Shown here in pieces: positions 230 through 18,595 of a DNA stretch of 21,535 nucleotides; the first letter of the stretch is position 1; each line of letters starts with the position of its first letter. Origin of the DNA: Planctomycetota bacterium (GTDB lineage Bacteria > Planctomycetota > Planctomycetia > Gemmatales > Gemmataceae); NCBI GenBank assembly GCA_016177925.1, contig JACOUH010000213.1, positions 1 to 21,535 of the forward strand, given 5' to 3'. The position numbers and the translations under genes were made by a program. The notes beneath the pieces are model-generated. The model ran no database searches. It was not told the origin of the DNA and worked only from the letters and a program-made list of their open reading frames with translations.

Positions 230-1498
<1,269 letters not shown>

Positions 1499-1501
1499 GT
1501 C

Positions 1502-2464
1502 TCAAAGCTCCTGCAGAATGGACTGAAGGTGTTCGCGCAGTATCTTCTCGACCTGGGGTTTGCCTCCGATGGAGTCATCATAAAAGATGACACGATAACT
1601 GCGAATATCGAAGGGCAGATCCCTGCCGCGCTGAGCAAGCAGGATCGTTGGCTTGTTGAGCGCATGCGCGTAACCGACCTCGTAATAGACATTCTGATTC
1701 GGCGCCGTGATTTCAGCGATCACCACTTTCGCGTCTTCGATCTTCTTCTGGATGTCCTGGAAGATGATGCCCGGGCCTGGAACTTCGTCGATCCGGGCAA
1801 CTTCAAAGCCCAGCGCTTGAGCTTTGGGCCGGATCACAGTCCGGTAAAGGGTGTCGTAGGGCTCCCCAAATTGCATGGCGACAAAAGCGGTGGGTGCCTT
1901 CCGTTGAACCGCAAAATCCTGAAATAGAACGGGCGATTTGGACATCGAGTAGAGGCCGAGTTGGTTTCCCGACGGGGGGCTAGACAGCAAATGCTCCAGC
2001 ACCGGGACGTCATCCACCACCAGAGAAATTCGCTGACCTTTCTGGGTCACCGTGAGCTGATAGTCCTGGTTGTAGCGGAGATTTTGAACCGAGCCGGCTC
2101 CCCGCCGAGGGACCCAGCCGGTCATCGGCAAGAACTCCCAGATCGCATACGCCAAGTCAGAGGCCCCCAACCCGGCAACCAGGTAGCCGCCCGATTCCGA
2201 CTGGTAACCGAGCACAATCCCCGCCGACTCACCCCTCAAGGGAGAGCTGGTTCCCTCGAATCGAACCTTCGCGCGGATAAGGCCATCTCGGAATCGTTCG
2301 TCACATATCGCAAGCCCATGCGCACCAGGCAAGGGCGTTGCGCCCGGACCTTCATAGTGAACGCTGCGATCCGCGATACCCCAGGAGCCGGCAATCGGCG
2401 CCCAGCGCGTAACAGGAACCCACTTTGGCTCTGCCTGGCTGATCATTCGGGTACTCACGATCAA
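1502..2464 (-). CDS. Two-domain protein of 320 aa (start TTG 2464 or ATG 2446): N-terminal DUF1080-like (3-keto-disaccharide-hydrolase / ConA-like jelly-roll) domain fused to a C-terminal nucleoside 2-deoxyribosyltransferase-like (NDT / TIR-like fold) domain; no signal peptide
   Basis: The N-terminal part (WVPVTRWAPIAGSWGIADRS ... FRDGLIRAKVRFEGTSSPLRGESAGIVLGYQSESGGYL ... GNQLGLYSMSKSPVLFQDFAV) follows the DUF1080 pattern, W..G.W.v.dg...F.l..e.r...NSGi..R ... G.iGLQ.hg..v.F.ni.i. The C-terminal part (FVAMQFGEPYDTLYRTVIRPKAQALGFEVARIDEV ... IEDAKVVIAEITAPNQNVYYEVGYAHALNKPTILLAQ) matches the NDT-like hallmark ...aD.vvA.l.....npGT.fE.GyA.AlgKPvi.l, with a candidate catalytic Glu in YYEVGYA. GC content is visibly lower than in the neighbouring genes. 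Confidence 0.7.
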   Translation of the reverse strand: MIVSTRMISQAEPKWVPVTRWAPIAGSWGIADRSVHYEGPGATPLPGAHGLAICDERFRDGLIRAKVRFEGTSSPLRGESAGIVLGYQSESGGYLVAGLGASDLAYAIWEFLPMTGWVPRRGAGSVQNLRYNQDYQLTVTQKGQRISLVVDDVPVLEHLLSSPPSGNQLGLYSMSKSPVLFQDFAVQRKAPTAFVAMQFGEPYDTLYRTVIRPKAQALGFEVARIDEVPGPGIIFQDIQKKIEDAKVVIAEITAPNQNVYYEVGYAHALNKPTILLAQRGRDLPFDIRSYRVIFYDDSIGGKPQVEKILREHLQSILQEL

Positions 2465-2555
2465 GAGACTTCTGCTGACCTCCCGCTCACCTGGATGAAT
2501 AATATCAAAACAGTAATGCTCGATGAAGGCAATACGCGGGGCAAGCTACTTTTGC
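2465..2555 (-). promoter_or_regulatory. AT-rich spacer between the PSD gene stop and the inserted gene; putative own promoter / insertion scar
   Basis: On the minus strand the stretch cattactgttttgatattattcatcc is about 27% GC in a window of about 68% GC. Candidate sigma70-like hexamers are present but none is convincing. Confidence 0.3.
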
Positions 2556-5732
<3,177 letters not shown>

Positions 5733-5829
5733 CGTTCTCTCGGCGTTCGGCGAGTCATCGCTGGAGGGTCATCTCTTGTTATATCGCAGTCCCCGGGAGT
5801 TTGCGACCAAGGTTTGCAATCGGCTGGCT
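5733..5829 (-). promoter_or_regulatory. Putative promoter / 5' leader of the PSD–inserted gene–DUF1501 operon
   Basis: On the minus strand: tcgcaa, then 17 nt, then tataac, read as -35 and -10-like hexamers about 60 nt upstream of ATG 5732. A weak match only. Confidence 0.2.
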
Positions 5830-6213
5830 TCATCCCGGAGCATCGCGCATGCACCACCAGACCCACAGGATGAGGGGGATTTGCAGTGGCAAGCGCACCA
5901 GGGCGATCACCGTCTTGGCGGTCCAGCCCGTAGCGAGGGCGTCGAGGAACATCTGCACGTTGGCGGGGAAGACCGCCACAAGGAGGGCAATCAGGCCCCA
6001 GCCGGCGGCGCGGCGCAGCGACGGAACCAGGATTCCGAGGCCGCCAGTGATCTCGAAGACCCCGCTCAGGTAGACCAGCTCGCGGTGCCACGGCAAGTAC
6101 GGGGGCATGATCTCCAGGTAGAGCTTCGGCCGAACGAAGTGCAGGACGCCCGCGCCGACGAAGAAGAAGGCGAGGACGATCCGTAGTAGAGCGCGTCCGT
6201 TTTGCCACTTCAT
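5830..6213 (-). CDS. DoxX family membrane protein (127 aa)
   Basis: ATG at 6213 is preceded by aggag with 7 nt spacing. Four predicted TM helices. The motifs LRIVLAFFFVGAGVLHF and LVAVFPANVQMFLDA are typical of DoxX. Confidence 0.75.
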   Translation of the reverse strand: MKWQNGRALLRIVLAFFFVGAGVLHFVRPKLYLEIMPPYLPWHRELVYLSGVFEITGGLGILVPSLRRAAGWGLIALLVAVFPANVQMFLDALATGWTAKTVIALVRLPLQIPLILWVWWCMRDAPG

Positions 6214-6228
6214 GGGCCGTACTCCTCT

Positions 6229-6282
6229 TTAGCCCGACGCGCAAGCGAGGAACACTTCAGCCTCGCTTGCGCGTCGGGCTAA
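6229..6282. terminator. Perfect hairpin (22-bp arms, 10-nt loop) between the serine-hydrolase gene and DoxX; candidate terminator or translational regulator
   Basis: ttagcccgacgcgcaagcgagg aacacttcag cctcgcttgcgcgtcgggctaa. It begins 24 nt after the hydrolase stop and, on the minus strand, ends 2 nt before the DoxX Shine-Dalgarno sequence. Confidence 0.5.
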
Positions 6283-6304
6283 GCAGCGGCGGTCGGCGCT
6301 GGGA

Positions 6305-7432
6305 CTACTTCACCGCCGCGGCGACGACGTTGCAGGCGCGAGCGAGGAAGCGGCCCTCGGGCTCCTGCGGCTGCGTCGTGAACAGGATGCAAAAGGACTC
6401 CGTCTCGGGGTCAAGCCAGCAGACGGTACCGGTGGCGCCCCAGTGGCCGTACGTGCGTCCGCCGAGCAGGTCGCCGAAGTTGGCCGAGTGGCCCGGCCAG
6501 TTCAGCCGCCAGCCCAGGCCCCACGGCCGGCAGCGCCGCTCCTCCTCCGGCACTGCTGGCATCACGGCCAGCTGGTTCGACGTCATCGCCCGCACCGTCG
6601 CCGGGCTCAGGAGCCGCACGTCCCCGAGCGTTCCGCCGTTGAGCATCATGCGACAGAAGCGGGCGAAGTCCGCCGGCGACGTGAGCATTCCGCCCCACGG
6701 CGCTCCGAAGCCCAGCCAGTACGCGCTGTTCCAGCCCCAGTCGGTGCCGGCCATCTCGGCCGGCACGCGCACCCCCGCGATCCGCTCGCGTCCCTTCCGG
6801 TCCGGGGGCCAGCCCAGCCAGGTGTCCTTCATGCCCAGCGGCTCGAAGATTTCCTTGCGGAGGAACTCCTGGATCGACTTGCCGGACACTTGATGGACGA
6901 TCTCGGCCAGCATAGCGGTGCCCATGCTCTGGTAGCTGACGCGTGTTCCAGGGGCGAACTGCAGGGGCAGCTTGCAGATCTCGTCGACGAACGCCGACAG
7001 CGGCTTGTGGGCCTGGCGCATCTTGACATTGTCCGGCAGCATGTCGGGCAGACCGCTGGTGTGCGTCATCAGGTGGCGCACCTGCACGTCCTGCTTGCCG
7101 TTGGCTGCGAACTTGGGCACGAACGCCGAAACCTTGTCCTCCAGCGTGATCTCGCCGCGTTCGACGAGCATCATGACCGCCGTGACCGTCACCGGCTTGG
7201 TGATCGAGGCGATCAGGAAGAGAGCGTCCTTGCCCAGTGGCGGCGCGTCCTTGTCGGGGCGCTGCCGGCCGAAGAACTGCGGCTCGACCACGCTGGTCTT
7301 GCGGCCGACGCAGAGGGCCGCGGCGGGCACCTTGTCGGAGTCGCACCAGCGCTTCAGCAGGTCGTAGGCCCGCTGCAGCTGATCGGGATCGAAACCGGCG
7401 GCCTCGGGTTTGGCGAGGGTCAAGACGGACAT
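6305..7432 (-). CDS. Serine hydrolase, beta-lactamase (class C / PBP-like) family, 375 aa
   Basis: ATG at 7432 has a GGAG Shine-Dalgarno sequence 6 nt upstream; the arginine-rich extension of the ORF track to 7651 is rejected. The SxxK motif is present in FLIASITKPVTVTAVMMLVERG, and the protein length fits the family. Confidence 0.85.
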   Translation of the reverse strand: MSVLTLAKPEAAGFDPDQLQRAYDLLKRWCDSDKVPAAALCVGRKTSVVEPQFFGRQRPDKDAPPLGKDALFLIASITKPVTVTAVMMLVERGEITLEDKVSAFVPKFAANGKQDVQVRHLMTHTSGLPDMLPDNVKMRQAHKPLSAFVDEICKLPLQFAPGTRVSYQSMGTAMLAEIVHQVSGKSIQEFLRKEIFEPLGMKDTWLGWPPDRKGRERIAGVRVPAEMAGTDWGWNSAYWLGFGAPWGGMLTSPADFARFCRMMLNGGTLGDVRLLSPATVRAMTSNQLAVMPAVPEEERRCRPWGLGWRLNWPGHSANFGDLLGGRTYGHWGATGTVCWLDPETESFCILFTTQPQEPEGRFLARACNVVAAAVK

Positions 7433-8167: not shown

Positions 8168-8953
8168 ATGTTTGAATGGCTCTTCCGGGCTACTTGTCCC
8201 TGCGACCCCGCAGCGAAGCGCTGGGTGGAAGATCGGCTCCGCTGGCTCGCCCGGCAGTTCGGCCTGCACATCCTGCTGGAGCGGCCGATCATCCTGCCCA
8301 CGGACGAGTTCTTCCCGGACCCCTACGACGGCTCGCCGAAGGCGGTCCGGCGAATGTTCCGCCGGGTCTGCGAGTACATGGAGGTCGACCCGGAGGCGGT
8401 CGAGATCAAGCTGTTCACGGACCGGACGCCGGGGTCGATGGCGGCCCTCAACCCGTTGCGGGGCTTCGCCGCCGGTACGTGGCAGGGAGGCGAGGGGCCC
8501 TGGCAGAAGGGAGTCGTCCGGATCGAGCGCAGTGCCCTCGACCGGCCGGCCGACCTGGTCGGCACCATGGCCCATGAACTGGCCCACCAGCGCCTGCTGG
8601 GCGAGGGTCGGGCTGAACCGGATGCCTTTGACAACGAGTTGTTGACCGACCTGACGGCGGTGTACCACGGCTTCGGGGCGTTCCTCGCCAACAACCCGCG
8701 GAAGTCGACCGGGGAACTGGGCTACTGGCCCGGGACCGAACTCCGCAGGCCGGAGTACATCTCCGAGCCGATGCTTGGCTACGCGATGGCCCACATCGCC
8801 TGGTTCCGGGACGAGGACTGGCCGGCCTGGGCGAAAGCGCTCCGGTGGGCGCCCCGGGCAGTGTTCAAGCAGGGCCTGCGCTACCTGCAAACGACGGCCG
8901 ACTCGACCTTCACGCCGGTACGGTTGCGGGCCGCACGCGCTAACGACACCTGA
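8168..8953 (+). CDS. Hypothetical protein with an HExxH motif (putative zinc metallopeptidase-like), 261 aa
   Basis: ATG at 8168 (MFEWLFRATCPCD...); the ORF-track start at 8096 is probably too far upstream. The conserved block LVGTMAHELAHQRLLGEG carries the HExxH motif. No further family assignment is possible by eye. Confidence 0.55.
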   Translation: MFEWLFRATCPCDPAAKRWVEDRLRWLARQFGLHILLERPIILPTDEFFPDPYDGSPKAVRRMFRRVCEYMEVDPEAVEIKLFTDRTPGSMAALNPLRGFAAGTWQGGEGPWQKGVVRIERSALDRPADLVGTMAHELAHQRLLGEGRAEPDAFDNELLTDLTAVYHGFGAFLANNPRKSTGELGYWPGTELRRPEYISEPMLGYAMAHIAWFRDEDWPAWAKALRWAPRAVFKQGLRYLQTTADSTFTPVRLRAARANDT

Positions 8954-8995: not shown

Positions 8996-10427
8996 CCGGC
9001 GGCGTCGCGCCGTTGGAGGTTTGCGGCTTGTCGAGTGCGCCCTTCGCCAGCTCCAGGACACTGGCGAGGAAGCCGACCAGCGAGCCCGTCGCGCCGCCGG
9101 CGTCGGGACCGATACTGATCGCCCGCAACTCCTCGGGCCGCGGCAGCGAGGCGGCAATCTCCGGCAGGCGAGCGATCAGCTGCGCCTGAACGTGCGGCGG
9201 CGACAGGTCGTTCTCCGCCGCTCGTCGCAGCTTGAACAGCCCCAGGTCGCGCTCCTCGCGACGGGCCCGCGCCTCGTGCGTCACGTCCTCGACCTCGACC
9301 GACGCGGCGGCCCGCAGCCGGTCGCGCTCGGCCCTGGCGCGGTCCAGGTCGATCTTGCGCTTGACCGCCTCCAGTTCCTCGGCGACACGGCGCCGCTCGA
9401 TGTCGAGCTGATGCAGGGCCAGCTCCAGGTCGGCCTCACGACGGGCGCGCTCGGTAGCGGTCCGGCCGGCGATGGCGCGCCGCTCCTCCTCCTGCTCGAC
9501 CTCGTGCCGGCGGGCGCGCTCGACCTGCTCGCGGTCGTAGTGCTCGCGCTGGCCGGTGAAGCGCAGTTCCTCGAGCTGCCGCTGGATGCCCAGCTCATCG
9601 GTCTCGCGCTTCTGGCGGTTGAGCTGTTCCTGCAAGGCAATCTGCTGGGCGGCCTCCAGTTCCGCGAGGCGAGCCAGCTTCTCGCGTTCGGCGCGGAATG
9701 GCTTCTGCAGGTTCTGCCACAGCTGCGTCGAACTGACCACCGCCTCCTTGATCTGCACGGTGACGATCTTCAGACCCAGGCCCGAGGCGGGATCTTCCTC
9801 GCGGTCGCCCTCGGCGACGGTGCGCAGCCTTTGCGTCAGTTCCTTGATGATCGGCTGCTTGTCGCTGAGGACGTCGTCGATCGACATGGTCGCGACCTTG
9901 TCCTTGATGGCGGCCTCGGCCTGCTCGCGAAGCTGGATATTCACGACCCGCATGGGATCTTCAGGATCGGAGAAGTCGAGCTTGCGATAGGCGGTGCGGA
10001 TGTCGTCGACGATCCACTGCACGTACGCCTGGACGAGGATGCCCTGGCGCTCGACGCAGACGCAGCGGGCGTTGATGAGCAGCGTCTGCACGACGGCGGG
10101 GACGACGAGAAAGGCGTCGGTGTAGGGGTTGTACGGGAAGGAGATGCCCATGCCGACATGCAACGGCTCGGGCCGGCCGCGGCGGGTATGGACGACGTAG
10201 ACATTGGGCGGCACGACGACAGTCTTCCAACGCCAGAAGCCGGTAATGCGGTAGTCGACGCCCCGCACAGGCTCGCTCTTCGCGGGCCCTGCCATAGCCA
10301 TAGAGTCGATTCCCTCGATCGCCGCCCCGGGTGCCGGCTTGGCTCGCCGGACGCGCTTCAGCTCGCCCTCGACCGCCGCCTGTTCCTGCATGACCTGGTT
10401 CAGGTAGTCGTTCTGCACTTGCTGCAT
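8991..10427 (-). CDS. SPFH/band-7 (flotillin-like) protein with a long C-terminal coiled coil, 478 aa
   Basis: ATG at 10427 with a gaggg box upstream. The SPFH core is YRITGFWRWKTVVVPPNVYVVHTRRGRPEPLHVGMG ... IVDDIRTAYRKLDF ... LGLKIVTVQIKEAVV. It is followed by a stretch rich in E, R, A, L and Q that is typical of the flotillin coiled coil. Confidence 0.85.
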   Translation of the reverse strand: MQQVQNDYLNQVMQEQAAVEGELKRVRRAKPAPGAAIEGIDSMAMAGPAKSEPVRGVDYRITGFWRWKTVVVPPNVYVVHTRRGRPEPLHVGMGISFPYNPYTDAFLVVPAVVQTLLINARCVCVERQGILVQAYVQWIVDDIRTAYRKLDFSDPEDPMRVVNIQLREQAEAAIKDKVATMSIDDVLSDKQPIIKELTQRLRTVAEGDREEDPASGLGLKIVTVQIKEAVVSSTQLWQNLQKPFRAEREKLARLAELEAAQQIALQEQLNRQKRETDELGIQRQLEELRFTGQREHYDREQVERARRHEVEQEEERRAIAGRTATERARREADLELALHQLDIERRRVAEELEAVKRKIDLDRARAERDRLRAAASVEVEDVTHEARARREERDLGLFKLRRAAENDLSPPHVQAQLIARLPEIAASLPRPEELRAISIGPDAGGATGSLVGFLASVLELAKGALDKPQTSNGATPPA

Positions 10428-10482
10428 GGATGTGCCCTCGTGAGAGATGGTTCATCAGCATTATACGCTCGTCGACCTCTCC

Positions 10483-10540
10483 CGTAGGGCAGGCGACCCG
10501 CCTGCCCTACGCGGGAGGCAGGCGAGACGCCTGCCCTACG
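10483..10540. repeat. Two tandem REP-like palindromic units (13-bp arms, 3-nt loops)
   Basis: Unit 1 is cgtagggcaggcg acc cgcctgccctacg, a perfect palindrome. Unit 2 is cgggaggcaggcg aga cgcctgccctacg, with an 8-bp perfect core. A degenerate copy lies at 8972-8995. The units sit in the divergent intergenic region between the flotillin and RluA genes. Confidence 0.6.
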
Positions 10541-10636
10541 GAAGAGGGGCGGGCGAGCCGGTTGCCGGACGCGGGGGTACAATACGGGGCATCGGGAAGA
10601 GGCCCCTCTCCTCCCCTGGCGCACTGGACACGTGTC

Positions 10637-11344
10637 GTGGATTTGCCTCCTCTGGAAATCCTGTACGAAGACAATCATTGCCTCGCCATCTACAAGCCCA
10701 GCGGCGCCCTGTCGACGCACTACGAGGGCAAGGAAGAAACCCTTGACCGCCAGGTGAAGGCCTACCTCAAGGAGAAGTACAAGAAGCCGGGCGACGTTTT
10801 CCTTGGCGTGGTGCATCGACTCGACCGGCCGGTGTCGGGCGTCTTGCTGTTCGCGCGGACGAGCAAGGCGGCGGAGCGGATCGCGCGGCAGTTCCGCGAG
10901 GGGACCGTCGACAAGGTGTACTGGGCGATCGTCGAGGGTGAACTGGTGTCGTCGGCCGGCTCGCTGGAGGACTGGCTGCTAAAGGACCGCCGCGCCGGCC
11001 GGGTCGGTCGTGTCGAGGTGGTCGAGCCGCGCACGACCGGGGCCCGGCAAGCACTCCTGCACTTCCAGCGCAAGGCGGTCCACGGCGAAGTGACGTGGGT
11101 GGAGGTGCGGCCGCAGACGGGGCGGACGCACCAGCTGCGCGTGCAGCTGGCGCACCACGGACACCCGATCTACGGCGACGCGAAGTACGGCTCGGTCCAC
11201 ACCTTCGGCCGGTCCATCGGCCTGCACGCACGCGCGCTCACCTTCCTGCACCCGGTCCGTTACGAGCCGATCACGCTGACCGCGGAGGTGCCGCGGCAGT
11301 GGCGCGGCCGGTTCGCGTACCTGCTAAGGGAGGGCCAGGTGTGA
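10637..11344 (+). CDS. RluA-family pseudouridine synthase (about 235 aa)
   Basis: The family motif HRLDRPVSGVLLFARTSKAA is present, with a conserved N-terminus ILYEDNHCLAIYKPSGALS and C-terminus GRTHQLRVQLAHHGHPIYGDAKYG. The start is probably GTG 10637; the ORF track begins at 10430 inside the repeat region. Confidence 0.85.
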   Translation: MDLPPLEILYEDNHCLAIYKPSGALSTHYEGKEETLDRQVKAYLKEKYKKPGDVFLGVVHRLDRPVSGVLLFARTSKAAERIARQFREGTVDKVYWAIVEGELVSSAGSLEDWLLKDRRAGRVGRVEVVEPRTTGARQALLHFQRKAVHGEVTWVEVRPQTGRTHQLRVQLAHHGHPIYGDAKYGSVHTFGRSIGLHARALTFLHPVRYEPITLTAEVPRQWRGRFAYLLREGQV

Positions 11345-12643: not shown

Positions 12644-13015
12644 ATGATCGTCGGAACCGAGTGGCTGGTGGACGCCGAGGGTTGTCGCCCGGAACTGCTG
12701 AGCGACCTGCCCGCCGTGCGCGCAACCTGTGAACGGATCCTCAACGACCTCGAGCTGCGGACCGTCGGGGAGGGCCTTGCCCATCAGTTCCCGTCGCCGG
12801 GCGGCATCACGCTGATGTACCTGCTGACCGAGTCGCACCTGACCTGTCACACTTATCCCGAGCACAGGATCGCCCTGTTCAGCCTGTCGTGCTGCCGTCC
12901 TCGCCCGCGCTGGGACTGGGAGACGCAGCTGGCCCGGCTGCTCGGGGCAGCTCGCGTGACGGTCCGCTGCCTGGCGCGCGGTGCGGTCGTCGAGCCCGAG
13001 CCCGCCGCGCTCTAA
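12644..13015 (+). CDS. speH: S-adenosylmethionine decarboxylase proenzyme, small class 1A (pyruvoyl-dependent), 123 aa
   Basis: ATG at 12644 with a gggaggg Shine-Dalgarno sequence. The diagnostic self-cleavage and active-site block is LLTESHLTCHTYPEH (the ES|H motif). The size matches the SpeH/SpeD class 1A enzymes. Confidence 0.9.
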   Translation: MIVGTEWLVDAEGCRPELLSDLPAVRATCERILNDLELRTVGEGLAHQFPSPGGITLMYLLTESHLTCHTYPEHRIALFSLSCCRPRPRWDWETQLARLLGAARVTVRCLARGAVVEPEPAAL

Positions 13016-13029
13016 CGGGGAGAAGCGCC

Positions 13030-15006
13030 ATGAGCCCCACGCATGCGACCTGCCCCTCCTGCGAAACGGTGCTGACCATCAGTCACGACGCCACGGTCAG
13101 CGTCGTCTGCAAGAAGTGTCATGCCGTCCTGGAGCGGCGCGGCGACAGCTTCCGCCAGGTCGGGACCGCTCCCGTCGTCATCCCCACGCGCTCGACCGTC
13201 GCGAATGGCATGGACGGCACCTACAACGGAACTCGCTTTACCGTTACCGGCCACGTCCAGCTCAGCAACGAGGACGGCGCCACCTGGGACGAATATTATC
13301 TCGGTTTCGAGGACGGCGCGTGCGGCTGGCTGGCCCAGGCCCAGGGCCGCCTGCTCCTGCTGTTCCGCGCCGACCTGCCCGAAGACCTGCTCCTGCCCGC
13401 CTTCGAGAGCCTCGACCTCAAAAATTCTCTCGACCTGATGCCGGGCCTGGGGGCCTTGCACGTCGTCGAGAAGGGCCAGGCCCGGGTCGAAGCTGCCAGC
13501 GGTCAGGTCCCCTACCTGCTGCGCCCCGGCGAGACGTACCCTTACGTCGACCTCGCCGCCATGAGCAGCGCCTTTGCCTCGCTCGACTTCAGCACGCAGC
13601 CGGCTACGCTCTTCGTCGGCCGTGAGATTACCTTTGCCGACCTCGGCATGGAGCCGGCCGCTGCCGAGCCCGCCGCTCTGGGCGAGTCGCTGTACTGCAC
13701 CGAGTGCGGCGCCCGCATGGAGGTGCGCAACCCGGGCCGGGCCCAACGTGTTACCTGCCTGCAATGCCGGGCGCTCTTCGATGTCAGCTCGGGCCGGGCA
13801 GCGTTCATCGGCACCCAGGACGAGGCCCCAGTCCAACCTGTCACGCCGCTGGGCTCGGTCGGTCACTTCGCTGCCGGCGACCTGACCCTGATCGGCTTCC
13901 TGCAGCGCAAGACGACCGACGAGGAGGGGACGACCTGGTTCTGGGAAGAGTACCTGCTCAGCGACGGCGAGGGCGGCTATCGCTGGCTGGTCTGCAGCGA
14001 TCGTCACTGGACGCTGTTCGAGCCGATCACCAAGGGCTCGGACATCCGACCGGTTGTCTACCACGCCCACCGCGCCTACAAGCTCTTCCAGCACGGCCAG
14101 GCGCAAGTCACCTATGTCGAGGGCGAGTTCTACTGGAACGTCGCCGCCGGCCAGGCGACCTACACGGCCGACTTTGTCCATCCGCCCTACATGTTGTCCG
14201 CCGAGTATTCCGAGGCCAGCAGCACCAAGGGCGAGTCCAACTGGACGCACGGCTTCTACCTGCCCGTTGCCGAGGTCGAGGCGGCGTTCGGCCTCTCCAG
14301 GTTGCCGCGGCCGAGGACGGTCGGTCCCAATCAGCCCTTCAACGGTTCGCAGATTTATCCGATCTGGTTCATGGCCAGTGCCGTCCTCGTCCTCCTTGGC
14401 GTGTTCTTCCTGATGCTGACCCCGTCGGAGAAGGTCTTCGACGAGACGTTCACCATCAGCACACCGCGCGACCCGGAGGAGCGGAAGAAGCTGGAGGAAC
14501 GCGTCGAGACGGGCAAGGGGATGCAGACGGTGGAGCGGCACACTATTCGGCCCGAGAAAAAGGTGTCGCTGAAGGGCCTGAAGAACATCAAGGTGACGGC
14601 CCACGCGCGCGACATTCCGTCGAACAGCTGGGTGGAGGTGGCCGGCTACCTGATCGACGACGACACGCTGGAAGTGCAGCCGTTCGAGCTTACCCTGGAG
14701 CATTACCAGGGCGTCGAAGACGGCGAAGCGTGGACCGAGGACGACCGCGAGAAAACCACGTACCTATCATCGCTGCCTGGCGGCGACTACGTGCTCCGCG
14801 TCGACCTCTACCGCCAGCCGCGGACGGAGTTCGGCGGCGGACCGCTCAGTGTCCGCCTCGTCATCGAGCAGGGCCATCCGCGCTGGTGGCACCTGCTTGT
14901 GGCGCTGGTGCTGCTGGCCATCATCCCGCTGATTACCTGGCTGGTGCAGAAGTCCTTCGAGACGCGGCGGTGGCAGAACAGTAACGTCAACCCGACCGGC
15001 GCCTGA
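13030..15006 (+). CDS. Uncharacterised membrane protein, 658 aa: two tandem zinc-ribbon plus beta-domain repeats (DUF4178-like?), a TM helix, a charged ~170-aa domain, and a C-terminal TM helix
   Basis: ATG at 13030 with gggaga 8 nt upstream, 14 nt after the speH stop. Repeat 1 is CPSCETVLTI...CKKCHAVL ... WDEYYLGFEDGACGWLA. Repeat 2 is CTECGARMEV...CLQCRALF ... WFWEEYLLSDGEGGYRWLV. The TM helices are IYPIWFMASAVLVLLGVFFLML and WWHLLVALVLLAIIPLITWLV. The DUF4178 assignment is tentative. Confidence 0.75.
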   Translation: MSPTHATCPSCETVLTISHDATVSVVCKKCHAVLERRGDSFRQVGTAPVVIPTRSTVANGMDGTYNGTRFTVTGHVQLSNEDGATWDEYYLGFEDGACGWLAQAQGRLLLLFRADLPEDLLLPAFESLDLKNSLDLMPGLGALHVVEKGQARVEAASGQVPYLLRPGETYPYVDLAAMSSAFASLDFSTQPATLFVGREITFADLGMEPAAAEPAALGESLYCTECGARMEVRNPGRAQRVTCLQCRALFDVSSGRAAFIGTQDEAPVQPVTPLGSVGHFAAGDLTLIGFLQRKTTDEEGTTWFWEEYLLSDGEGGYRWLVCSDRHWTLFEPITKGSDIRPVVYHAHRAYKLFQHGQAQVTYVEGEFYWNVAAGQATYTADFVHPPYMLSAEYSEASSTKGESNWTHGFYLPVAEVEAAFGLSRLPRPRTVGPNQPFNGSQIYPIWFMASAVLVLLGVFFLMLTPSEKVFDETFTISTPRDPEERKKLEERVETGKGMQTVERHTIRPEKKVSLKGLKNIKVTAHARDIPSNSWVEVAGYLIDDDTLEVQPFELTLEHYQGVEDGEAWTEDDREKTTYLSSLPGGDYVLRVDLYRQPRTEFGGGPLSVRLVIEQGHPRWWHLLVALVLLAIIPLITWLVQKSFETRRWQNSNVNPTGA

Positions 15007-15031
15007 GCCGGCCGTTCCGGGGAGAATCCCG

Positions 15032-15217
15032 ATGAGCAGATTCGCGATTTTCTACTCGATCGTGGCGGCCTCCATTGTCCTCTTCTACACCGTTTCGACG
15101 GCGTGCGGCTGGGAGTATTTCCATTCCGAAAAGGAGAAGACCACCGAGGAGGCGAAGCGGGAAGGCTATCGGGGCGGACACTTCATCTTCATCCCCGGTC
15201 CGCGCGGCGGCAAATGA
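15032..15217 (+). CDS. Small single-TM membrane protein (61 aa), translationally coupled to speE
   Basis: ATG at 15032 with ggggagaa 5-6 nt upstream. The TM helix is FAIFYSIVAASIVLFYTV. The stop TGA at 15215-15217 overlaps the speE ATG at 15214 (ATGA). Confidence 0.55.
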   Translation: MSRFAIFYSIVAASIVLFYTVSTACGWEYFHSEKEKTTEEAKREGYRGGHFIFIPGPRGGK

Positions 15218-16779
15218 ACCGGTCGTTCTTCCTGTTCCTGAACGTCCTGATCATCGCCACCTGTGGCCTGGTCTACGAGCTGCTCGCCGGGACCGCGGCC
15301 AGCTACCTGCTGGGCGACACGGTCTTTCAGTTCTCGACCGTCATCGGCGTCTACCTGTTCGCCATGGGCGTCGGCTCCTGGTTGTCGCGCTTTATCGACA
15401 AGCAACTGGCCTGGGTGTTCGTCGAGGTCGAACTGGCCGTCGCCCTGCTGGGCGGGCTGGCGTCGCCGATCTTCTTCCTCGGCCACGCCTATCTGAGTTT
15501 CTTCCAGGTCGTCCTGTATGCGGTGGTCTTTTTGATCGGAACACTGGTCGGCCTCGAGATCCCGCTCCTGATGCGAATCCTCGAGGGCACTATCGAGTTC
15601 AAGGACCTCGTTTCGCGGGTCCTGGCATTCGACTATGTCGGTGCCCTGATCGCGTCGCTGGCCTTTCCGATGCTGCTGTTGCCGAGCCTTGGCATCATGC
15701 GGACGTCGCTGGCGATTGGCATCGTCAACGCGCTGGTGGGCCTGTGGGCGACCTGGCTGCTGCGGCCACAGATCAAGGGGAGCGTGACGGCCCTGCGCGC
15801 CCGGGCGATCCTGGTGATCGTCCTGCTCGGGGTTGGCATCGTCTTCTCGAACCGGCTAATCCTCTTCGCCGAGGAGGGTATCTACGCCGACCCGGTGGTC
15901 TTCACGCGCACGACGCCGTACCAGCGCATTGTCGTGACGCGCGGCACGGGCGGGGTCTTCCGGCTGTACCTCAACGGCCATTTGCAGTTCAACTCGGTGG
16001 ACGAGTATCGCTACCACGAGGCGCTCGTCCACCCGGCAATGGCAGCGGTCGTGAGCCCGAAGCGCGTGCTGGTTCTGGGCGGCGGCGACGGGCTGGCGCT
16101 GCGCGAGGTGCTGCGCCACCCGAACGTCGAATCGGTGACGCTGGTCGATCTCGATCCGGGCATGACGCGGCTGTCGGACCGTTATCCGCCGCTGGGTCAA
16201 CTCAACGAGCAGGCTTACCACGATGCCAAGGTGCGTGTTGTCAACGAGGACGCCTACATCTGGGTGCAGAAGGCCCCACCGGACGGCCGGCCCTTCGATG
16301 TGATCCTCATCGACTTTCCCGATCCGCACAGTTACGCCTTGGGGAAGCTGTACACGACGCACTTCTACCGGCTGCTGAAACGACACCTGACGCGCGACGG
16401 AGCGATCGCGGTGCAGTGTACGTCGCCCTTCATGGCGCCCAAGACATTCTGGTGTATCGTGAAGACGCTGGAGGCGTCCGGCTATCGGGTGAAGCCGTAT
16501 CACGTCGCTGTGCCATCGTTCTTCGGCGTCTGGGGCTTCTCGCTGGCCAAGCGCGAGGAGGACGAACTGAAGGTGCCGGAGCGAGTGCCGCGCGACCTGC
16601 GCCGGCCGGACGGAACGCCAGTGCGGCTGCGGTTCCTCAACGACGACGCTCTCAAGGCGATGTTCGTGTTCCCCGAGGACATGCAATTGCCAGCCGACGA
16701 GAAGGTGGAGGTCAACCGTCTCGACAACCAGGTGGTGGTGCAATATCACGAGGCGGAGTGGAAGCGCTACGTCCGATAG
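15214..16779 (+). CDS. speE: Spermidine synthase (polyamine aminopropyltransferase) with an N-terminal polytopic membrane domain, 521 aa
   Basis: About 200 aa carrying roughly 7 TM helices precede a classical SpeE catalytic core: YQRIVVTRG...LYLNGHLQF, VLVLGGGDGLALREVLRHPNVESVTLVDLDPGM and DVILIDFPDP. Confidence 0.9.
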   Translation: MNRSFFLFLNVLIIATCGLVYELLAGTAASYLLGDTVFQFSTVIGVYLFAMGVGSWLSRFIDKQLAWVFVEVELAVALLGGLASPIFFLGHAYLSFFQVVLYAVVFLIGTLVGLEIPLLMRILEGTIEFKDLVSRVLAFDYVGALIASLAFPMLLLPSLGIMRTSLAIGIVNALVGLWATWLLRPQIKGSVTALRARAILVIVLLGVGIVFSNRLILFAEEGIYADPVVFTRTTPYQRIVVTRGTGGVFRLYLNGHLQFNSVDEYRYHEALVHPAMAAVVSPKRVLVLGGGDGLALREVLRHPNVESVTLVDLDPGMTRLSDRYPPLGQLNEQAYHDAKVRVVNEDAYIWVQKAPPDGRPFDVILIDFPDPHSYALGKLYTTHFYRLLKRHLTRDGAIAVQCTSPFMAPKTFWCIVKTLEASGYRVKPYHVAVPSFFGVWGFSLAKREEDELKVPERVPRDLRRPDGTPVRLRFLNDDALKAMFVFPEDMQLPADEKVEVNRLDNQVVVQYHEAEWKRYVR

Positions 16780-16800
16780 GAGGAGTTCTTCCGCTTGCGG

Positions 16801-16896
16801 CTTAGAAGCGGTTTCAAAACTTTGTGGGGCAGGTCGCTGACCTGCCTGGAGCTGGCAGGTCAGCGACCTGCCCCACGTTTTGAAACCGCTACTTAG
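16801..16896. mobile_element. MITE-like nested-palindrome element (about 86 bp) with terminal inverted repeats, flanked by 5-bp direct repeats CTTAG
   Basis: The left arm aagcggtttcaaaactttgtggggcaggtcgctgacctgcc (16806-16846) and the right arm ggcaggtcagcgacctgccccacgttttgaaaccgct (16854-16890) are inverted copies with one 3-nt bulge. Each arm has an inner hairpin ggcaggtc gc tgacctgcc. CTTAG occurs at 16801-16805 and 16892-16896. The element lies between the speE stop and the oxidase gene. Confidence 0.45.
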
Positions 16897-16918
16897 CACG
16901 CGCTGGGAAGAGGTTGTC

Positions 16919-18595
16919 ATGGCGAAGCGTCCCTCGTGGCAGATCGGGCCGACGCGACGCGACGTGTTGGCCACCCTGCTGGGCGTGCCGGTGGCCCTCG
17001 CCGCGGGGTGTTCGCGCAAGCCGCCGCCGCTGCCGGAGGGCCGGATCGTCGGCGCCTCCGCCGGCATCGGTCATCGGCTGCGTGACGGCTTGCGCCCCCA
17101 GCCGGCCGAGGGTGCCTGGCAGGAACGGGCGGTCGTCATCGTTGGCGGCGGCATCGCCGGGCTGTCGGCAGCATGGCGTCTGCTCCTGGCCGGCTTCGAC
17201 GACTTCGTCCTCCTCGAACTGGAGCCGCGGCCGGGCGGCACGTCGGGCAGCGGTGCCTCGGACGTCTCCGCCTACCCCTGGGGGGCCCATTACCTGCCGG
17301 TGCCGATGAGGGAGAACCGGGCCCTCGTCCGCCTGCTCCGCGAGATGAATGTCATCGAGGGCGAGGACAAAGACGGCGAGCCGGTCGTCGGCGAGCAGTA
17401 CCTGATCCGCGACCAGAAGGAACGCATCTTCCACCGCGACGCGTGGCATCCTTGCGAGGAGCCCTACCTGCACGCCGGCGAGAGCGGCGAGGACATCGCC
17501 CAGCGCAAGCGATTCGACGCCGAGGTCGATTCCTGGGTCAACTTTCGCGACGGTAAAGGACGGCGGGCCTTCGCCATCCCGATCGCCCGCGGCTCGGACG
17601 ACGCGACCGTGACCGCACTGGACCGGCTGTCGATGGCCGACTGGATGCGCCGGAAAGGGCTGACGTCGCCGCGGTTACGCTGGATGGTCGACTACGCTTG
17701 TCGCGACGACTACGGAGCCACCGCGGAGGACGTCAGCGCCTGGGCGGGCCTGTTCTACTTCGCCGCCCGCAAGCGCAAGGCCCACGGCGATTCGCAGCCG
17801 TTCATGGCGTGGCCGGAGGGCAACGGACGTATCGTTCGCCACTTCGCGGAGCGACTCCGCTCGTCCGGGAAGGAGCTACTGCGGCTGGGCCTGGCGGTCA
17901 GCGAGGTGGGGCCCGTGGAGCGCGCCGGCAAGCCGGGCGTGGAGGTCATCGCCTGTGACCATGAGGGCCGCCAGGTGATCGGCTACCGGGCCGAGCGAGT
18001 GATCTTCGCGGCGCCGCAGTTTGTGGCGCCGTACGCGATCCGGTCGCTGCCGCGTGAGCGGATCGCCCTGGCGTCGTCCTTCGACTACAGCGTCTGGATG
18101 GTGGCGAACCTGGAGTTGAAGGATCGTCCAGCGGGCCCATTCCTCGCCTGGGACAATATCCTCTACGAGAGCCCGTCCTTGGGCTATGTCGTGGCGACGC
18201 ACCAGACCGGGACGGACTACGGGCCGACGGTGCTGACCTACTACTATCCGCTGACCGCCGGCAGCGCGCGCGCAGCCCGCACGACGCTGCTGGGGACCGG
18301 CTGGGAGGAATGGGCGGAGGTGGCGCTGGCAGACCTGGGCCGGGCGCATGACGACATCCACTCGCTGGTCGAGCGGCTGGACGTGATGCGCTGGGGCCAC
18401 GCGATGCCGCGGCCGAAACCGGGCACGGTCTGGGGAAGCGAACGGCCCAAGGCGGCCCAGCCCTACCGCAACGTCTCCTTCGCCCACTCCGACCTGAGTG
18501 GTGTTGGCATCATGGAGGAGGCGTTCTACCAGGGCGTGCGGGCGGCCGAGGAAGTCCTGGCCGCTCACGGCGTGAAGTCCGCAACGATTCTTTAA
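16919..18595 (+). CDS. FAD-dependent oxidoreductase, flavin amine-oxidase-like, predicted Tat-exported lipoprotein (558 aa)
   Basis: ATG at 16919 with ggaagagg upstream. The Tat-like and lipobox signal is TRRDVLATLLGVPVALAAGCS. The dinucleotide-binding motif is VVIVGGGIAGLSAAWRLL, and the length and C-terminal region are typical of amine oxidases. Confidence 0.8.
   Translation: MAKRPSWQIGPTRRDVLATLLGVPVALAAGCSRKPPPLPEGRIVGASAGIGHRLRDGLRPQPAEGAWQERAVVIVGGGIAGLSAAWRLLLAGFDDFVLLELEPRPGGTSGSGASDVSAYPWGAHYLPVPMRENRALVRLLREMNVIEGEDKDGEPVVGEQYLIRDQKERIFHRDAWHPCEEPYLHAGESGEDIAQRKRFDAEVDSWVNFRDGKGRRAFAIPIARGSDDATVTALDRLSMADWMRRKGLTSPRLRWMVDYACRDDYGATAEDVSAWAGLFYFAARKRKAHGDSQPFMAWPEGNGRIVRHFAERLRSSGKELLRLGLAVSEVGPVERAGKPGVEVIACDHEGRQVIGYRAERVIFAAPQFVAPYAIRSLPRERIALASSFDYSVWMVANLELKDRPAGPFLAWDNILYESPSLGYVVATHQTGTDYGPTVLTYYYPLTAGSARAARTTLLGTGWEEWAEVALADLGRAHDDIHSLVERLDVMRWGHAMPRPKPGTVWGSERPKAAQPYRNVSFAHSDLSGVGIMEEAFYQGVRAAEEVLAAHGVKSATIL

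Follow-up and report, generated by a model that had tools for sequence, protein, structure and literature searches.

The question raised by this locus is why a gene for a two-domain protein of 314 residues stands between the two genes of a PSD-DUF1501 pair, an operon type that is very abundant in planctomycetes, and what its product does. The locus lies on a contig of 21,535 nt from a Planctomycetota bacterium (GenBank JACOUH010000213.1, assembly GCA_016177925.1), the whole of which is referred to here as the window. The gene is foreign to the pair and is a horizontally acquired insertion; an original prediction, made from the DNA letters alone, had described it as wedged into the pair on the same strand, and comparison with related loci confirmed this. 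We hold with moderate confidence that the product is a mobile, stand-alone sensor-effector N-glycosidase of the NADase type, a conflict protein that was passively inserted into the operon. The observations behind this reading are the insertion itself, the two folds, an invariant glutamate with its surrounding motif, a patchy and mobile distribution that includes prophages, and the asymmetric conservation of the two domains.

The 80 closest DUF1501 loci from metagenomes (43–76% identity) formed the comparison set. A co-oriented PSD gene precedes DUF1501 in 66 of these loci, and in 54 of the 66 the PSD stop codon lies no more than ~250 nt from the first aligned DUF1501 residue (median ~50 nt); the corresponding distance in the window is ~1160 nt. 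A homologue of the inserted gene is present in none of the 80. The G+C content (GC) of the inserted gene is 0.579 and that of its leader 0.486, compared with 0.68 for PSD, 0.664 for DUF1501 and 0.67 for the window, and GC at third codon positions (GC3) is 0.67 versus 0.85–0.89 for every other credible gene of the window. Nucleotide homology between copies of the gene (blastn, flank alignments) extends only from 14 nt upstream of the ATG (window position 2460) to the stop codon. The start carries a conserved cgtgagtacYcRaATG, and positions 2447–2460 (cgtgagtacccga), which are kept in the unrelated contexts of loci L006/L080 and L002, are the only flanking sequence that travels with the reading frame. 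The same alignments gave no sign of the borders of a mobile element: neither terminal repeats nor target-site duplications nor common flanks were present. Downstream of the gene, positions 1402–1457 form an inverted repeat with 28-nt arms that consists of two tandem 20-nt hairpin units (e.g. TCAACTCGC-GGA-GCGAGTTGA); it occurs once in the window and in none of the other loci, and its fold z-score is only -1.2.

The longest open reading frame (ORF) at 1502..2464 on the minus strand exists as originally predicted, with an extension that reaches an upstream TTG at 2464. The predicted length of 320 residues did not stand: the product is assigned 314 residues because the N-terminus of the deposited protein ("hypothetical protein HYS12_16195, Planctomycetes bacterium"), like that of the homologues, corresponds to ATG 2446 (MISQAEPKW). 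The 3-nt gap to DUF1501 holds only for the GTG start of the longest DUF1501 frame. Alignment with DUF1501 relatives begins only near residue 35, and the N-termini of these relatives are short; the true DUF1501 start may therefore be an in-frame GTG or TTG 45–66 nt further downstream. Co-transcription of the three genes, also part of the prediction, is plausible because neither a terminator-like site nor a convincing minus-strand promoter was found between them, the leader at 2447..2555 included.

Other PSD-DUF1501 spacers, on other metagenome contigs, were also found to hold small genes, namely XisH with XisI, four-helix-bundle proteins of the 23S_rRNA_IVP family, DUF4058 and Uma2 (Table 1). 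The XisH/XisI and 23S_rRNA_IVP inserts have a GC clearly below that of their own locus, and the junction seems to be a place where selfish-type cassettes insert repeatedly. Copies of the gene in question occur at other sites. One of 75% identity lies between AtuA and its small AtuA_ferredoxin partner (L081:6585-9311 and L082:3022-5748, with matching flanks in L007); the gene therefore repeatedly lands inside co-oriented pairs. Further close relatives (70–80% identity) stand between a peptidase M50 gene and the histidyl-tRNA synthetase gene, and after a gene for a PQQ-repeat protein. That the gene might be a functional third component of the PSD-DUF1501 system, a cytoplasmic partner of the exported pair, is extremely improbable. 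The shared strand, the tight spacing and the missing terminator fit such a role, as does the presence of PSD or DUF1501 within 6 kb in loci L001, L003, L005, L006 and L008. However, the gene occurs in 0 of the 80 related loci, DUF1501 lies within 6 kb in only 6 of 53 loci of the family, and the window is alone among the 53 in having the gene between the pair, so that synteny is not conserved. Moreover, as read from the sequences, PSD and DUF1501 both carry export signals whereas the 314-residue protein lacks a hydrophobic signal at its N-terminus, the codon composition of its gene is foreign, and the same junction holds unrelated selfish-type genes elsewhere. No evidence of a functional link to PSD or DUF1501 emerged from these loci.

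An AlphaFold2 model of the protein, computed from an alignment of 62 sequences, has a pLDDT of 89.3 and a pTM of 0.85. The model comprises an all-β domain (residues 15–183) and an α/β domain (residues 186–313) joined by about two residues. The N-terminal domain is predicted to adopt a concanavalin A-like β-sandwich fold. Its Foldseek matches are CBM66 (E = 1e-9) and 3-keto-glycoside enzymes (E ~ 1e-8), and the fold also resembles the ConA-like domains of phage tail fibres. CBM66 and DUF1080 have been described as overlapping names of one domain, which is over-represented in Planctomycetes (PMC5673643), and the DUF1080-type jelly-roll that had been proposed for this half was borne out at the level of the modelled fold. 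The expected profile match was not found: PF06439 does not match the 314-residue protein at E ≤ 1, and 8 of the 62 homologues match it weakly at E < 0.1 (best E 5.8e-3).

The C-terminal domain is modelled as a flavodoxin-like α/β fold with the putative catalytic glutamate at the end of the fourth strand, as in the nucleoside 2-deoxyribosyltransferase (NDT) superfamily, and the modelled fold likewise agrees with that of TIR domains. Structural comparison gave figures of 15.2 for the CMP hydrolase MilB, 14.2–14.4 for deoxyribosyltransferases, 13.9–14.3 for the TIR domains of IL-1RAcP, RPS4 and MyD88, 13.4 for the TIR-STING protein Cap12, 13.3 for SARM1 and 12.3 for Rcl. The domain therefore takes a place intermediate between two branches, NDT ("DrHyd") and TIR, of a single Rossmannoid class (PMC9503650). 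Profiles followed the structure only in part. PF05014 aligns with residues 234–283 at 25.7 bits (E 1.4e-5), below its gathering cut-off of 28.8 bits, and all 62 homologues match it weakly (best E 1.5e-6). PF10137 reaches E 0.21 with this protein and at best 1.2e-3 among the 62 homologues, against a cut-off of 24.7 bits, and no other TIR model was among the matches listed. Pfam profiles, which had been expected to identify the two halves, supported them only weakly, while both domains themselves were borne out by structure.

Glu256 (YYEVGYA) is invariant in all 62 close homologues and in all 75 cluster representatives (32–66% identity). Also invariant in the two sets are Asn252, Gly258, Pro278-Phe279-Asp280, Arg285, Tyr289 and Phe188, and the pattern N-x-N-V-x-Y-E is kept without exception in 13 C-terminal modules from other architectures. 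When compared with solved structures, the family profile matched DNPH1/Rcl at E 3e-5, and a profile built from the 13 diverse modules matched DNPH1/Rcl at E 2e-7, a CMP N-glycosidase at 0.018 and Cap12 at 0.029. The profile alignment pairs VVIAEIT-APNQNVYYEVGYAHALNKP with VVVAEVT-QPSLGVGYELGRAVALGKP, and Glu256 is thereby set opposite the glutamate of YELG in rat Rcl, the catalytic nucleophile of that enzyme. The NDT/TIR assignment of the C-terminal half and the placement of its candidate catalytic residue were in this way upheld. The original prediction had named three outcomes that would count against it: neither domain supported, the gene a standard member of the operon, or the glutamate not conserved. 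None of the three was encountered.

The rest of the DNPH1-type active site appears not to be retained. In the deposited D69A and D69N chains of Rcl the mutated position aligns with Ile232, next to Asp231; six residues before Glu256 there is an Asn instead of Asp or Ser, and strand 1 is followed by a loop of sequence AMQFGEPYD. The motifs that presumably form the 5'-phosphate loop of DNPH1 and supply its acting aspartate (Rcl D69) seem not to recur here.

The C-terminal module has relatives in other contexts. The PADLOC "Effector (TIR)" model PDLC00733 matches the whole domain at E 7.9e-16 and also matches all 13 modules tested. A Chloroflexota protein (L070:2469-3827) combines the module with a Macro domain (PF01661, 28.6 bits, above threshold); this fusion suggests ADP-ribose chemistry and is a hint that modules of this family act on NAD-derived ADP-ribose. 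Further fusions, recognised by eye and without a Pfam match, are to long coiled-coil tails in Clostridia, to a GxGKT NTPase in an 857-residue Aquamicrobium protein and to a DGNHR (ParB-like) domain in Haliotispira. Such fusions are typical conflict-system architectures.

These comparisons bear on a rival reading, in which the protein serves nucleotide metabolism or house-cleaning: an N-glycosidase like DNPH1 or MilB, it would remove the base from a (modified) nucleoside monophosphate, use the β-sandwich for substrate specificity or oligomerisation, and be an accessory enzyme with no part in immunity. The best profile matches of the protein among solved structures are indeed DNPH1/Rcl and CMP N-glycosidases; the two domains are rigidly fused, the C-terminal domain is very strongly conserved, and the neighbours are housekeeping genes. 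Nonetheless we consider this alternative rather unlikely: neither the phosphate loop of DNPH1 nor the acidic residues of NDT enzymes appear to be conserved, the distribution is patchy across at least eight phyla with low GC, prophage carriage and no conserved metabolic neighbour, and the module recurs in conflict-type fusions and matches a PADLOC effector model.

The two domains differ strongly in conservation. Mean pairwise identity among the 75 cluster representatives is 25% in the N-terminal and 50% in the C-terminal domain, and among close homologues 45% and 77%, respectively. Only glycines and Trp15 reach at least 80% conservation in the N-terminal domain of the representatives, with no polar residue among them, which speaks against a conserved active site in this domain and so against the 3-keto-sugar route that had been offered as a second possibility for this protein. 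An N-terminal domain that evolves roughly twice as fast as the conserved C-terminal one would fit a diversifying recognition domain on a conserved effector.

A search of 5.8 billion proteins returned 815 sequence clusters at E ≤ 1e-3, so that the domain combination, which the original prediction had implied to be rare, is found in more than 800 clusters. The best 120 of the 815 are mostly 300–335 residues long with 93–100% query coverage, along with some shorter fragments, and among these 120 every homologue is either unnamed or called "hypothetical protein". An exhaustive HMMER search gave 282 clusters at 50% identity for E ≤ 1e-30 and 22,200 for E ≤ 1e-3; most of the latter probably share the C-terminal domain only, because domain-only matches were obtained in genome, viral and plasmid searches. 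Among 185,579 species genomes (GTDB, one genome per species), ~50 full-length loci were detected with two exact peptide patterns, which makes this a minimum count. Their hosts are Planctomycetota, Acidobacteriota (Bryobacterales and others), Verrucomicrobiia, Alpha- and Deltaproteobacteria, Spirochaetia, Dehalococcoidia, Rokuibacteriota, Zixiibacteriota and Binatia. The distribution is rare, patchy and cross-phylum, with at least eight phyla represented. In 48 of 50 loci the GC of the gene falls below that of the flanking DNA, the mean difference being -6.4 points. One Terriglobia contig (L042) holds one full and two partial or diverged copies within 5 kb (5911-6595, 8287-8478 and 10001-10891), the extra ones being tandem paralogues or decay products. 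C-terminal fragments alone were seen in L055, L058 and L060, and frameshifted copies in L027, L051, L052, L054 and L056, part of which could stem from errors in long-read assembly.

Full-length homologues of 37–43% identity are present in predicted viral contigs (IMG/VR). Two such contigs were inspected, and their phage genes are genuine: in L165 a tape-measure protein and two tail proteins precede the gene, an ORF layout shared by the apparently syntenic L164, and in L166 it stands beside the major-head, portal and terminase genes. Across L164–L167 the gene has a GC of 0.43–0.47 within contigs of 0.53–0.60. Such a GC contrast is typical of a moron. Collections of plasmids and of GenBank phages yielded no full-length match, only the C-terminal module, which occurs alone in many Streptococcus and Staphylococcus temperate phages. 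These Gram-positive phage proteins have 216–259 residues, contain the NxNVxYE module and are encoded against the early lytic genes. In prophage 315.2 the gene (S. pyogenes SpyM3_0974, L227:3462-4241) is oriented as integrase and repressor, and in S. aureus phage SA13 (SA13_16, L226:3938-4588) it runs opposite to the replication genes around it. They are candidate prophage-expressed defence or exclusion genes.

This carriage raises the question of who benefits. The gene could be a prophage moron that serves the phage, either by superinfection exclusion or by destroying a host immune signal or NAD-derived messenger, and the chromosomal copies would then be prophage remnants. The full-length copies in prophage structural modules with strongly deviant GC, the module genes of Streptococcus and Staphylococcus temperate phages and the resemblance of the N-terminal fold to tail-fibre ConA-like domains all point in this direction. 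However, most copies (~50 loci) have no phage genes within two genes on either side and the window has none at all, while a defence gene carried by a prophage is already covered by the preferred explanation, from which a phage-serving role differs mainly in the beneficiary. We judge it clearly improbable.

The genomic surroundings of the family are heterogeneous. When ORFs within 6 kb on either side of 53 loci were clustered all against all, the commonest neighbours were DUF1501 (6 loci) and PSD (3 loci). Pfam and PADLOC scans of the 149 immediately flanking proteins gave mostly housekeeping enzymes and no recurrent neighbour family, with at most two proteins per Pfam family and at most four per PADLOC family. 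A conserved partner gene was accordingly rejected, as nothing recurs in these loci. There was likewise no sign of a CBASS, Pycsar or Thoeris partner as a recurrent neighbour in the 53 loci, for which the 25 commonest of 61 PADLOC families were viewed and no specific search for a CD-NTase or cyclase was made. Neighbours are co-oriented upstream in 37 of 47 loci and downstream in 34 of 49, which was judged not unusual, the ORF calls being crude and no background having been computed.

The mechanism we favour is as follows. The accessory gene would have landed in the PSD-DUF1501 spacer and be read through with the operon without a functional tie to it. The concanavalin-like (CBM66/DUF1080-fold) β-sandwich would be the recognition domain of a cytoplasmic protein, and the TIR/NDT-class domain an N-glycosidase with Glu256 as the catalytic residue. 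Binding of a ligand or target by the β-sandwich would license the glycosidase, probably via oligomerisation as in TIR and NDT enzymes, in a conflict protein of the phage-defence or abortive-infection type. Enzymatic activity, substrate, trigger and defence role are all inferred here. The most likely substrate would be NAD(P)+, because of the affinity to the PADLOC model and Cap12, the Macro fusion and the precedent of Retron-Eco1 (PMC12673091); within the TIR-DrHyd-SLOG class, the immune members are NADases (PMC9503650). A nucleotide is less likely, nucleoside monophosphates being favoured by the similarity to DNPH1 and MilB. The sensor-effector hypothesis, one of two put forward originally, appears to accommodate best the patchy spread, the prophages, the domain asymmetry, the "Effector (TIR)" match and the module fusions.

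Several points weigh against it. The Pfam models for TIR and NDT stay below their thresholds, and the solved structures nearest in sequence belong to nucleotide hydrolases (DNPH1, MilB/BlsM) rather than to NADases. Chromosomal copies lie among housekeeping genes and not in recognisable defence islands. A search with the N-terminal domain, of limited sensitivity, returned this family only, so that the domain is not a shuffled sensor module. An identity of 45–55% across phyla is high for an arms-race protein. Finally, the near-absent linker and the confident inter-domain packing of the model would equally fit a substrate-binding accessory domain of an ordinary enzyme.

A variant that we regard as a long shot takes the CBM66-like domain as a sugar-recognition module, with the enzyme aimed at glycosylated or hypermodified nucleotides, such as the sugar-decorated hydroxymethyl-pyrimidine nucleotides of phages, or acting as an NADase triggered by a phage glycan or capsid surface, after the manner of SPRY/lectin-fold sensors. 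DNPH1 and MilB act on hydroxymethyl-dUMP and hydroxymethyl-CMP. If the enzyme were aimed at glycosylated nucleotides, the protein would be a single-protein defence that destroys the phage-specific nucleotide pool and not that of the host.

The features of the locus are collected in Table 1. The PSD gene matches PF07587 (5.5e-97), PF07583 (2.2e-86) and PF07635 (3.3e-19). Elsewhere the window is unremarkable and codes for a protein of the beta-lactamase family, a Band 7 protein, a DUF4178 protein, a pseudouridine synthase, an amine oxidase, an FGE-sulfatase and two proteins that resemble a D-glutamate cyclase and a spermidine synthase; none of the annotated proteins of the window is of a prophage or defence kind. 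On one strand, positions 12889–18595 hold a run of genes for the DUF4178 protein (705 residues), the spermidine-synthase-domain protein (558 residues) and the flavin amine oxidase (571 residues), which may be a polyamine-related cluster unrelated to the inserted gene. Long antisense ORFs, such as that of 677 residues at 3840–5873 on the plus strand opposite PSD, have low GC3 or high GC1 (GC at first codon positions) and are artefacts of the 67% GC, not genes.

Table 1 Coordinates of the inserted gene, its proposed domains and its surroundings; positions refer to the window unless a locus is given.
Feature	Position	Strand	Remarks
Two-domain protein gene	1502..2446	minus	314 residues; stop codon 1502-1504; starts at ATG 2446
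N-terminal β-sandwich, concanavalin A-like lectin/glucanase fold, CBM66/DUF1080-like	1898..2419	minus	residues ~10-183; proposed sensor
C-terminal α/β domain, TIR/NDT ("DrHyd") class	1505..1891	minus	residues 186-314; proposed N-glycosidase effector
Signature motif N250-Q-N252-V-Y-Y-E256	1679..1699	minus	Glu256 codon 1679-1681, candidate catalytic residue
PSD protein, upstream half of interrupted pair	2556..5732	minus	1058 residues; PSCyt1/PSCyt2/PSD1; signal peptide
DUF1501 protein, downstream half of interrupted pair	230..1498	minus	PF07394 1.8e-124; Tat-type RRWFL signal
Leader, PSD stop to ATG	2447..2555	minus	109 nt; AT-rich, GC 0.486; last ~14 nt common to other copies
Trailer, gene stop to homologue-aligned part of DUF1501	1396..1501	minus	holds inverted repeat 1402-1457
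Other PSD-DUF1501 junctions with inserts	L102:899-1692, L107:780-1322, L158:5358-5914, L126:445-1296, L093:3404-5986

N-glycosidases of the TIR/NDT class are central immune effectors from bacteria to humans, and to our knowledge each new sensor domain found on such an effector has so far shown a new mode of infection detection. If the protein is active, a lectin-fold sensor would be added to the repertoire of these effectors. The family is compact (~310 residues), encoded by a single gene and widespread in soil phyla that are thinly covered by defence catalogues (Planctomycetota, Acidobacteriota, Verrucomicrobiota and others), and the invariant Glu with the NxNVxYE motif offers a ready mutational test. 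The recurrent arrival of small mobile genes at the PSD-DUF1501 junction also calls for caution in inferring function from gene order there.

Pfam, NCBIfam and PADLOC contain no model for the full-length protein or the domain pair, and no description of a lectin-fold plus N-glycosidase architecture was found in the literature searched. The nearest characterised systems each differ from it. DNPH1/Rcl and MilB/BlsM are single-domain enzymes, whereas the 314-residue protein has an added N-terminal β-sandwich, stays below the PF05014 cut-off, seems on reading its sequence to lack the phosphate loop and the NDT aspartates, and has an accessory, mobile spread. The effectors Cap12 TIR-STING and Pycsar PycTIR (PF10137, PDLC00733) carry a STING, SAVED or cNMP-binding domain where this protein has the ConA-like β-sandwich, and its PF10137 score is far below threshold. 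The immune effector of Retron-Eco1 (Ec86), a domain of the NDT superfamily, hydrolyses NAD(P)+ (PMC12673091) and is the precedent for a protein that is NDT-like in sequence and an NADase in function; its control lies with a reverse transcriptase-msDNA complex, whereas the window has no retron components, and it gave no match in the profile searches of solved structures, direct similarity not having been compared. Set against CBM66/DUF1080 (PF06439, the 3-keto-disaccharide hydrolase family), the present protein gives no significant PF06439 match, is cytoplasmic and not secreted, and appears to lack conserved polar or catalytic residues in its N-terminal domain. The DUF4062/"Swarozyc" proteins are recently recognised TIR/NDT-like NADases with a conserved Glu and variable accessory domains that act in phage defence (10.64898/2026.05.01.722283), from which the present protein differs in having no Pfam DUF4062 match at E ≤ 1, another motif and another partner domain. 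The family is undescribed, but TIR/NDT-like N-glycosidase effectors with an appended sensor are already known, and in that sense it is not categorically new.

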